DNA of 58,750 nucleotides from Planctomycetota bacterium (GTDB taxonomy: Bacteria; Planctomycetota; UBA8108; UBA1146). Positions 42,001-45,000 of the stretch are shown here, piece after piece. Every line of letters begins with the position of its first letter. The first letter of the stretch is position 1. The DNA lies in assembly GCA_036338595.1 (NCBI GenBank), contig JAYZBV010000057.1:1-58750 (forward strand), read 5' to 3'. The position numbers are program-made.

Positions 42001-45000
42001 GCCAACTGGCATCGCGACCATGCCGCGAAGACGCTGGAACCCTTTCACGACGATTACGCCTACTGAACCGTGCTATGGCCGGCTTCGACCTCCTGGCGGT
42101 GCGGTTCCTGGATCGGTGACCGGGATCTCCGTATCCCAGCTCTTGCCGAGTCGGCGCCCCTGTCGAACATGTGAGCGTGTGTTCTTCTGCGTCGGTCGCC
42201 TCGTCTCGAGCGCCTGATCGAGAGCCTTGCGGATGGTATCAGCGTCTGCATCGGCGGCCAGTTTTGCAATCACCTCGACCTGGAGTCCGTAATTGTCTGG
42301 CTGTACGACCCAGATTCCAGAAGCGGGCTTGTCGATCCCCACAGCCTTCAATTGCGACGGCTCGGTGGTGGATGCCCAGCTCAAGCGGCCGATGTAGGGT
42401 TCCGTCCAGCCGATGGCTGCGAGCGATTGGAGCTGTTCATCATCGAGTCCGCCGCTGATCACGAGGGGTAGTCGATCACAGGCCGCGATGTTGACGGCGC
42501 GACGAACATCCTTGGCCACTGGCAGCGCAGGACCTGTTGAAGCCTCGGGCTTCTTTGACGGTGGGTGACTCTTTGCGAGGTGTTCCATCTCGAGGGCGAG
42601 AACGGTTCCTTCCCAGCCGGTGGCACCACCGAATACCATCCTCGGGGTGCGGCCCGAGGCACTCAGCCGGGTTTTTCCATCGGGAGCGAGCATCACAAAA
42701 ACCGTGTTCTCCAGCTGCCCAGAGCGACCCCGATAGATCCCTTCCAGCAATTTGCCCTCGACGGCATCTTCGTAAGTGGCCAGTCGGACACAGACAAATT
42801 TTCGAGATGCGTCGATGACGAGTGGGTCGGACCAGAGACTCCGGTCCATCTCCTGCTTGCCGGGTCACCAGATTCCAGGCACGCCATGGCACTGGGGGGC
42901 TGCCGAGAGCAGCAGGATCGGCTTTCCGCTGCGGCTGGCTTCCGCCCTGGCACCTTCCCATGTACCCCACCAGGCGACCCCTGCGGGATAGTTGATGCTG
43001 CCCATGACAGGTGCGATTTCGAGGTCAGCGGCCGGTTTAGCACCACTGCCGAGGATCAGAACCACAATCATGAGTGGATAAAGGGGTAGGTGGATCATCG
43101 GACTCCTTCTGCTGACAAGATAACCCCGCTAACCGAGTCGAGGTGTAACAATTGATGCGGCTTCTGAGTCGAATACCATTCAGGGGTGTGACGCAGTTGA
43201 GGAACAGAGCTGATTTCGCAACGAAGTTCGATCGCCAATGGAGGTGAAGTGCTCATGGATAATTCACGGTGGCTCCCGCTTTTCTTTGTGTGGATCATCG
43301 GCTGTATGCTGACTCCATCGCCCTCGGATGCTGCTGATCATCCGGTAGCCGATCTTCGCTGGGATTTCAGGGATGGATTTGTTTCTTCATCCGGCGCTGT
43401 CAAGGCGGCCGCTGGAGGTCTTGACGGTCAACTTTCCGGGGATCTTGTCCTGGCCGATGCAGGATCCGGCCCGCTTTTATTTGGAGGCGGAGCCAATGGG
43501 ATGTTGATGGTCGCGAAGGATTACAAGCCGGTTTCCCGTCATCTGCCGACTCAGGATTTTACGATCAGTTGCTGGGTAGTACTCGAAGAGTTGATGCCGT
43601 GGGATTCTCTCCTTTGCTGTCTTCAGGACAACGGCGGATTCGAGAAGGGTTGGTTACTCGGTACTCGAAACGGTAAACCATGTGTGGCTGTCTCCAGTAA
43701 AGGCTCCGATGATGGCGACGGAGCGATGACCTACCTCGATGGTTCCAGGTTGATGACGCTGGGAAAGTGGCACCACATCGCCGGCAGTTACGACGGCAAA
43801 ACCATGAAAGTCTACCTCGATGGAGAAATGGTGGGTGAGAGCGGAGCACAGTCCGGGCCGATTCTATATCCCGAGAAAGCGTCGCTGGTGATTGGCTCAT
43901 ACGTCGATGACGACGAAAATCACCCCCATATCGGAGCCGTCCAGGATCTTCGCCTGTGGAGGACTGATCTGTCGGCAGCCGAGATGAGAGCCGTGGCGAG
44001 TCAGGAACCCGGCTGTACCCGGTCGGCGCCACCACGACCTCCGCTAGCGATGGTCGTGGCTCCGTATTTGCAGTGGGGTACCACCGATGGAATCACGGTC
44101 TGTTTTGAATCCAATCGGCCCACCGTGGCGATGGTCGAATACGGGGCGACAGCAAATCTGGGAAACTCGGTAGTGAGCGATGAGCCGGCCAAACTCCACC
44201 ACGTTCGGATCGAGGGGTTAGAGACGGGAACTCCCTACTTCTATCGCGTCACGGTTCACCAAGACGGGAATCCGGAAGCAGGAGTCGAGGGGATGGAAAC
44301 GGGGATCCTCACATTTCAGACTGCAGCGGATGCCGACACCGCATTCGGTTTCCTGGTGGTGGGGGACACCCAGAACAATCCGAAAGTGACCAGATCAGTA
44401 AGTGACCTGGCATGGGGACACCGTCCTAATTTCATCGTGCATTGTGGCGATCTGGTGGGGACCGGCAGTAACAAGCGAGAATGGGTGCACCAGTTCTTCG
44501 CCGAGGCAGCGGATATTCTCTGTCGCTACTCGATGTTCCCGACTCTGGGAAACCATGAGCAGAATGCGGCACTGTACTATCAGTATTTCACCATGCCGGA
44601 GCCGGAGTATTACTACCAGTACAGCTGGGGGAATACTGATTTCTTCGTGGTCGATACCAACAAGCGGATCGCTTCCGATACCGATCAGGTGAAATGGCTC
44701 GAAGCGGCTCTGGCAGCGAGCAAGTCGACCTGGAAGGTCGTCTATCATCACCATCCAGCGTGGACTTCCGATGAGAATGATTACGGAAACACCTGGAAGG
44801 GTGGGTCCGACCAGGGCTATCCCCCGGTACAGAAGACATTGGTCCCTCTGTATGAGAAGTACGGTGTGGACGTGGTGTTCAACGGTCACATCCACGTTTA
44901 TGAGCGAACCTGGCCGATCAGAAACGGCAAAACAGTAGAAGCTGGAGAAGGAGTGGTCTACATCACCACCGGCGGTGGCGGAGGTAGTCTGGAGAATTTC

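Follow-up and report, generated by a model that had tools for sequence, protein, structure and literature searches.

A single gene is located on the minus strand between positions 43098 and 42073 of the window, which is the whole stretch of 58,750 nucleotides analyzed here (contig JAYZBV010000057.1 of the Planctomycetota assembly GCA_036338595.1). Translation of this interval yields one 341-residue frame that is closed by a TAG and interrupted by exactly one in-frame TGA. Gene calling with translation table 11 divides the gene into a 77-residue ORF (42865–43098) and a 258-residue ORF (42073–42849). The preliminary description had proposed that the two calls are one protein of 341 residues, and this is borne out by the single frame and by a break that falls inside one thioredoxin domain. 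The gene is solitary, with a divergent LamG/metallophosphoesterase gene on one side and a convergent DinB-family gene on the other, and a consensus scan gave no σ70-like promoter. As judged from the sequence, the split calls almost certainly represent one exported protein with a predicted selenocysteine in a thioredoxin-type active site. The features of the locus are as follows.

43103–43108, minus strand: Shine-Dalgarno-like AAGGAG, 4 nt ahead of the ATG at 43098; assigned by sequence, with a presumed function.
42073–43098, minus strand: whole gene, 341 residues on TGA read-through, ending in TAG; supported by the frame and by orthologous frames.
43027–43098, minus strand: signal-peptide-like N-terminus, residues 1–24, a hydrophobic core followed by P-A-A; probable cleavage site placed by eye.
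42556–42984, minus strand: domain 1, residues 39–181, a Thioredoxin_7/DsbD-gamma/ERp18-like fold carrying the predicted Sec; from Pfam and fold matches.
42874–42897, minus strand: 8-residue insertion P68–G75 between the first strand and W77-U78, modeled with two short strands; from the gap against ERp18 and from DSSP.
42889–42891, minus strand: Cys70, candidate resolving cysteine; 147 of the 154 TGA loci have it at −8, as do all seven Cys orthologues.
42865–42867, minus strand: in-frame TGA, predicted Sec78, in W-U-P-G-K, at the first-Cys position of CxxC; from the sequence, the homologous loci and the ERp18 alignment.
42829–42847, minus strand: bacterial SECIS-like hairpin, an 8-bp stem starting 17 nt past the TGA with a 3-nt loop, G-U-C, 25 nt past the TGA; from sequence, covariation and controls.
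42784–42792, minus strand: two almost invariant residues of strand 2, Cys103 and Arg105 (C103 in 241 of 243 and R105 in 245 of 245 sequences of the set below 70% identity).
42703–42711, minus strand: E130-N131-T132 at the site of the thioredoxin cis-proline loop, with no Pro; from conservation, with the register taken from profile alignments.
42202–42546, minus strand: domain 2, residues 185–299, a second thioredoxin-like fold with no active-site motif; from the model, with Z of about 8–9 to plain thioredoxins.
42480–42478, minus strand: Cys207 of domain 2, dispensable (present in 209 of 246).
42109–42180, minus strand: conserved C-terminal helix and tail (H310, G314, W321, P326, D329); from the model and conservation.

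Every related locus that includes the site, 154 in all (74 genomic and 80 metagenomic), has the TGA in one shared alignment column. Many of these loci are close kin and some of the metagenomic ones duplicate genomes; since the 154 loci amount to about 62 lineages at 65% identity, the number of independent observations is well under 154. The genomic set consists of 36 loci from the class, 37 from the phylum and 1 other, after eight loci taken as duplicates of class genomes (L058–L065) were dropped. Also excluded from the counts were L022 and L045, which begin past the site, and L053–L057, which are weak matches and not full family members. Locus L092 was re-registered by one base owing to a downstream frameshift, and row L046 of alignment A1 is incomplete. 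The metagenomic set was drawn from 295 stretches and comprises the 80 most similar to the query. Although the patterns used in the scan either were neutral or favored Cys, all 80 have TGA.

Of the 59 genomes of the class, 34 contain a total of 38 strong matches. One TGA is present in 36 of these matches, and the other two begin beyond the site, at residues 84 and 121; the count given in the preliminary description is thereby reproduced. A profile search detected the family in 48 of the 401 genomes sampled from the phylum. Its named relatives are mostly Planctomycetota MAGs, joined by a single Verrucomicrobiota fragment and a single record labeled Bacillota. A weak search among proteins of 462–2000 residues gave no longer fused forms. 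In four of the loci (L025–L028) the protein is fused to a CxxCH-bearing domain.

Only eight full-length proteins occur among 256 database matches, seven with Cys and one with Leu at the site. The existence of Cys orthologues had been claimed before; they account for 3 of the top 120 database matches, alongside one Leu form. All seven Cys orthologues read C-x7-C. The N-terminal database fragments (30 of 30 found) stop at G-x-W, the Trp being the residue just before the TGA. In a quick tree of 82 rows, rooted only at its midpoint, the Cys forms are scattered among the TGA forms and the Cys/Sec label requires five changes, of which at least three are forced by strongly supported branches.

The hairpin downstream of the TGA is under selection at the RNA level. 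At a fixed register, at least six of seven pairs are kept in 151 of the 154 loci. When only the 102 distinct sequences are considered, at least six of seven pairs are kept in 97%, compared with 23% after synonymous recoding of the same peptides. Among 27 distinct sequences, pairing was found in 97.2% of the cells, with two pairs changed on both sides. The pairing score was equaled by none of 500 shuffles, a test that is inflated by the relatedness of the sequences, and slid registers gave 20–58%. The SECIS assignment made earlier thus holds for an 8-bp stem that exceeds the shuffled, slid and synonymous-codon controls. The loop reads G-U-(C/U), with G as the first loop base in 149 of 154 loci. 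Ser87, the codon of which builds the loop, is encoded by AGT in 146 of 146 cases, whereas AGT makes up 12% of the Ser codons elsewhere in these genes. For Arg86 the codon is AGG in 93 of 107 cases, compared with 7% elsewhere. Ser87 is retained in none of the seven Cys orthologues and is retained in the Leu form. Weak or shifted hairpins are seen in L086, L100 and L103.

The folding energy of the hairpin, computed on L104, for which the hairpin region is identical, is −12.7 kcal/mol. Its stem, loop, spacing and energy all lie inside the limits for the consensus bSECIS given in the legend to Figure 2 of PMC13188914. The 8-bp stem, the 3-nt loop opening with G-U, the 25-nt spacing and the energy of about −13 kcal/mol are all as in bacterial SECIS/SelB recoding, and the family presents nothing mechanistically new in this respect.

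The genome encodes tRNA-Sec, selA and selD on one contig (C72) and selB on another (C108), and RF2 is present. Within the 401-genome phylum sample, selA or selB is found in 48 of 48 carriers of the family. The selA gene itself is present in 47 of the 48, the last having selB, compared with 241 of 353 non-carriers, where kin are not independent. The features by which bacterial selenoproteins are recognized are found together here, namely a conserved UGA, alignment with Cys, SECIS geometry and selA, selB, selC and selD in the genome. Four RNA sequencing runs gave pieces on the neighboring genes; inside the gene, only one 35-nt piece with less than 90% likeness was found, and one run contained 7% of the words of the region.

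Selenocysteine is very probably inserted at residue 78, as judged from these comparisons. The other readings of the TGA are a real stop between two coupled genes, a shared nonsense mutation, or a UGA read as Trp. They draw on the storage of the two halves as separate database proteins, on the presence of M84 as a possible start codon in 127 of the 154 loci, and on the one homologue with Leu at the site. The two-gene reading fails because 23 of the 154 loci have no ATG, GTG or TTG at residues 79–90 and because the break would split one thioredoxin domain between its first strand and its active-site helix; a Shine-Dalgarno-like core at usable spacing ahead of codon 84 is found in only 10 of 154. 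TAA or TAG never takes the place of the TGA, which aligns with Cys and not with Trp, and RF2 is present. The Leu form keeps Ser87, as expected if its Leu codon arose from TGA recently by mutation or through an error in the read. Taken together, these alternatives are very improbable.

The N-terminus suggests that the protein is exported. A hydrophobic 10-residue stretch (Kyte–Doolittle mean of at least 2.0, a crude test) was detected in 69 of the 73 genomic loci with enough upstream sequence. The structural model, built from a 109-row alignment, has a pLDDT of 90.2, which replaces the value of 81 reported previously, and a pTM of 0.85. It contains two thioredoxin-like domains (residues 39–181 and 185–299) and a conserved tail. 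A single-sequence fold of domain 1 gave a pLDDT of 39 and was discarded. Pfam PF13899 matches domain 1 with an E-value of 7e-5 and 23.3 bits, under its 27-bit cut-off. Domain 2 is non-catalytic. An origin of domain 2 as an internal duplicate of domain 1 was considered and is undetectable by profile (E 0.03).

The alignment and the model place Sec78 at the predicted nucleophilic position, that of the first Cys at the start of the active-site helix. In the alignment with ERp18, U78 falls on the first Cys of CxxC and K81 on the second, and there is an exact 8-residue gap around Cys70. This match, of the family profile against the PDB, is weak (E 0.23) and served for register only; the search of PDB sequences with the family profile gave nothing significant. 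The remote homologue L054 reads W-U-P-G-C, in agreement with U at the first-Cys position. The residue directly before U is Trp in all 74 genomic loci. The residue at +3 from U is K in 67, Y in 4, F in 2 and T in 1 of these loci and is never Cys, so neither CxxC nor UxxC is present. With U at the first-Cys position and Lys at the second, the motif is best described as UxxK plus a Cys in an inserted loop.

The preliminary description had reported a conserved Cys in a C-x7-U redox motif that stands in for CxxU or UxxC. The spacing of C70 and U78 is correct, and it is general but not universal. In the 74 genomic loci, the loop Cys is at −8 in 67, at −9 in 4, at −11 in 1 and at −4 in 1, and is absent in 1 (L017, which has His and yet keeps the TGA and hairpin). 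Over all 154 TGA loci it is at −8 in 147, at −9, −11 or −4 in six, and absent in one. Where C70 is missing from its column, a Cys occurs elsewhere in the same loop in six of seven loci. The redox role of the motif is a proposal, and U78 occupies the canonical N-terminal position of CxxC.

Outside the loop, C103, R105, E110, E114, N131, R150, P193 and G237 are 98–100% conserved in 246 sequences below 70% identity. In this set, N131 is found in 245 of 246; at position 132, T or S occurs in 242 of 246 and Pro in none. No Pro is present among the residues listed for positions 130–132, and the cis-proline expected ahead of strand 3 is absent. C103 is more conserved than C70. C207 is 85% conserved and varies independently of C70 and C103. 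Among 108 full-length rows, 24 lose C207 and keep C70, six with no C70 in the column keep C207, and C103 is never lost. Since C70 and C207 are not lost together, they do not act as a structural pair. Structural disulfides C103–C207 and C70–C207 were considered and rejected for lack of co-loss, and a C70–C103 pairing was discounted by our reasoning from fold topology alone.

No NCBIfam family was matched by the 341-residue protein at an E-value of 0.001, as had been stated previously, and the cut-offs of the NCBIfam selenoprotein models were reached by none of the family members. NF041383 gave 13.3 bits for the query against a cut-off of 275 bits (E 0.049), with a best E of 0.0034 among 109 members, and NF041199 gave 11.4 bits against a cut-off of 300 bits (E 0.11), with a best E of 0.00096 among the 109. 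Profile comparison indicates that the closest catalogued family is that of the VPGUxxT selenoproteins (NF041383/NF041382, OS_HP5), to which the first domain is sister (HH probability 96.7%, E 3e-10, 116 columns). The VPGUxxT proteins have U at the same first-Cys position and Asn before the cis-Pro position, and they occur in the same phylum. The likeness ends with domain 1. The six members compared have U/C-x-x-C, keep the Pro (W-N-N-P) and have no inserted Cys loop. VPGUxxT also calls for V-P-G directly before U, whereas the sequence here is V-P-G-I-W-U. The Trx7/PDZ (seleno)protein NF041199 has a similar Trx7-like N-terminal Sec domain (HH probability 81.5%, E 1e-5); its own motif is C-x-x-U-x-x-C with no insertion, followed by a part named for PDZ, and the family described here has no CxxU.

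Table 1 of a 2026 review (119 families; PMC13188914) contains no W-U-P-G or C-x7-U motif, and its widest spacing is UxxxxU. The catalogue comparison also took in the available parts of deep-Sep, the GOS survey, the Olavius paper and BSepDB. A literature search, largely outside subscription papers, found no paper on the family or on a C-x7-U thioredoxin motif. As far as checked, the family is uncatalogued, of a well-known kind and with a changed active site, the catalogue entries that have no dedicated model being compared by motif only. It is quite improbable that the protein is a divergent VPGUxxT, Trx7/PDZ or other listed thioredoxin-like selenoprotein. The homology of domain 1 with U in the same place, the weak NCBIfam matches and the motif-only comparisons speak for such an assignment; against it, the score is far below the cut-off, the homology ends with domain 1, and true members of both families, taken from the same phylum, have a different motif and no insertion and keep the second Cys, VPGUxxT keeping the Pro of the cis-Pro loop as well. 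In the genomes G003, G138, G162 and G234, the family described here and VPGUxxT occur as separate genes. The Sec codon, SECIS element, export signal, two thioredoxin-like domains and absence from the checked catalogues that were described beforehand are all upheld.

The domains of DsbD-gamma, DsbH and AGR2/AGR3 type have CxxC or CxxS with a cis-Pro, and the group that includes ERp18 is extracytoplasmic. The best structural match to domain 1 is 3f9u (Z 11.6, rmsd 2.5, 125 aligned residues), followed by DsbH (2ju5; Z 10.5, rmsd 5.0, 134 aligned), ERp18 (1sen; Z 10.3, rmsd 3.0, 120 aligned) and DsbD-gamma (2fwe; Z 10.0, rmsd 2.8, 115 aligned). ERp18 itself has W-C-G-A-C, a cis-Pro loop and no 8-residue insertion. 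The Thioredoxin_7 group as a whole (DsbD-gamma, DsbH, ERp18/TXNDC12 and AGR2/AGR3) has neither Sec nor the second domain of this family. The repeats of PDI and QSOX, named previously as the best Foldseek hits, do rank first by E-value (1.7e-5) and likewise combine one catalytic and one non-catalytic thioredoxin domain. They superpose only at an rmsd of about 17–19 Å (15–21 Å for the PDI/QSOX tandem domains; query-normalized TM-score of at most 0.28), their domain arrangement is different, and the family here has no CxxC; DsbD-gamma, DsbH and ERp18 are better matches per domain.

On balance, the protein is probably an exported two-domain thioredoxin-fold selenoenzyme in which Sec78 would act as the nucleophile and be resolved by Cys70. 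By the established SelB mechanism, SelB would bind the hairpin and insert Sec78. The selenolate of Sec78 would then attack an oxidized substrate, Cys70 would resolve the adduct as a C70–U78 selenenylsulfide, and a reductant of the envelope would reset this bond. According to the available text of PMC2757866, it is typically the first Cys that serves as nucleophile in enzymes of this fold. The assignment of Cys70 as the resolving partner is somewhat favored; Cys70 is taken as a replacement for the second Cys because it has no co-varying structural partner and because a Cys tends to stay in the loop. The same source states that the cis-Pro is better conserved than CxxC and serves in substrate binding, perhaps also blocking metal binding. 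A specific substrate, in preference to general disulfide shuffling, is suggested by the loss of the cis-Pro and by the invariant polar residues R105, E110, E114, N131 and R150. No neighboring gene recurs in more than 4 of the 62 lineages (a sulfatase and a kinase-like ORF recognized by eye), synteny being limited to near relatives, and therefore no reductant or substrate is indicated.

A more extended reading is tentative, and we consider it more doubtful than probable. In this widespread family, nearly all members of which would bear Sec, the thioredoxin site may have been rebuilt, with the CxxC partner and the cis-proline lost and the inserted loop providing a C-x7-U selenenylsulfide in a new polar pocket. 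The substrate could then be one not yet linked to selenium, in the planctomycete cell envelope, and the Cys forms would have arisen secondarily, by repeated loss of Sec.

Two other functions compete with resolution by Cys70. Sec78 might work as a single selenol that reduces a peroxide or another small oxidant and depends on an external thiol for its regeneration, with Cys70 as an accessory. The Asn of W-N-F in glutathione peroxidases has a catalytic role. When domain 1 is set without gaps against one glutathione peroxidase, with the hairpin Gly as the anchor, N131 falls on this Asn; VPGUxxT proteins, however, already have the same Asn (W-N-N-P). L017 does without the loop Cys, but the Cys is retained in 153 of the 154 loci. 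Glutathione peroxidases also have a first-position U and no second Cys (UxxT, Table 1 of PMC13188914), and the cis-Pro is replaced in peroxiredoxins too (PMC2757866, in part). The profile of domain 1 nevertheless gave no significant alignment with that glutathione peroxidase (probability 0.1%) or with six deiodinase-like proteins (0.5%), the target profiles being thin. No peroxidase or deiodinase is among the 50 structural matches listed, which does not amount to an exclusion. This function is unlikely.

Less likely again is a metal or metalloid site, in which Cys70 and Sec78, with E110 or other polar residues, would bind Cu, Hg, Zn or As in an exported chaperone, sensor or detoxifier. Two soft ligands lie near each other in sequence, some members (L025–L028) carry the CxxCH-bearing fusion, and the cis-Pro that possibly prevents metal binding by CxxC (Su et al. 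2007, as cited in the available part of PMC2757866) is absent here. Against such a site, there is no conserved His nearby, positions 69 and 71 vary, and no metal-resistance or transport neighbor recurs across lineages. Resolution of Sec78 by Cys70 is preferred to both.

Recognition of this gene corrects a systematic annotation error by which the C-terminal halves are filed as hypothetical proteins or inactive thioredoxins. Cys orthologues are rare, which is plausibly why methods that depend on Cys/TGA pairs missed the family; this limitation is stated in the available part of deep-Sep. A search for literature devoted to selenium use in the phylum found no such paper. The family adds a selenoprotein to a phylum with large selenium use, in which selA is present in 288 of the 401 sampled genomes. 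If Cys70 resolves Sec78, the Cys–Sec spacing of this thioredoxin-fold site would exceed that of every motif listed in the 2026 catalogue (PMC13188914, Table 1), and the natural Cys orthologues make this role of Cys70 directly testable.

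The genes that flank the predicted selenoprotein gene in the window are the following:
37435-42066, downstream: sugar-type ABC transporter genes (identified by eye), a LOG-like gene and a DinB-family gene
43249-46028, upstream, on the strand opposite to the selenoprotein gene: a LamG/metallophosphoesterase gene and a DUF4261 gene
No link between the selenoprotein and these neighbors was seen across the two intervals.

The genes for selenocysteine (Sec) synthesis were located on contig C72 of the same genome (G000):
32141-34795: selA, selD and tRNA-Sec, side by side
The selD gene contains one in-frame TGA, and selB is found on a separate contig. 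Sec use is very common in the phylum, since selA is present in 288 of the 401 genomes sampled; a literature search on this subject returned little. A further TGA-containing gene of G000 (L039) was identified on contig C73:
about 76.7-77.7 kb: TGA gene with the motif G-G-G-U-F-W-G
This gene appears to be an MsrB-MsrA fusion, with the TGA at the MsrA active site. In-frame TGA codons were also detected in one GPx and six deiodinase-like genes (L196-L202) from four of the five planctomycete genomes tested; no such gene was found in G000 at the thresholds applied. Two additional thioredoxin-like TGA genes were observed in other genomes. The first (L054, G041:C245) has the motif W-U-P-G-C preceded by an open frame of 441 aa, and the second (L053, G002:C267) has G-H-P-L-G-C-T-U together with a hairpin.

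Many matches to the two nearest catalogued selenoprotein families, NF041383 (VPGUxxT) and NF041199 (Trx7/PDZ), contain two TGA codons. In the loci L184-L189 and L193, the planctomycete members of NF041383 carry a VPG-U/C-x-x-C motif rather than UxxT, and one member of NF041199 carries U-D-P-U.

Shortened, frameshifted or doubled copies of the selenoprotein gene were found at several loci. The reading frame of L081 ends 33 codons past the TGA, L092 is frameshifted downstream of the TGA, and all that is left at L055 is a short remnant. At four loci in the set of L081, L092, L055, L118, L121 and L153, another copy or part of the gene lies beside the first. The database protein P0018 has Leu at the Sec site and retains Ser87, whose codon is SECIS-dependent; from this protein sequence, the Leu probably reflects a recent mutation or a read error from TGA. 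Locus L061 is labeled Bacillota; it is 88% identical to planctomycete loci and has neighbors in common with them, and the label is probably wrong.

The architecture of the family also varies. An added N-terminal cytochrome-c-like domain with CxxCH occurs in L025-L028. EF-hands (Pfam) and a helical N-terminal extension are further additions in members among L046, P0186 and P0018/P0024/P0032. Within the loci L047-L051 and L103, a paralogue group with a U-K-G-K motif has the loop Cys moved to position -9 or -11 relative to Sec, and a distant member has Cys at -4. These loci are natural probes of the idea that the loop cysteine, Cys70 at -8 from Sec78, is the resolving residue.
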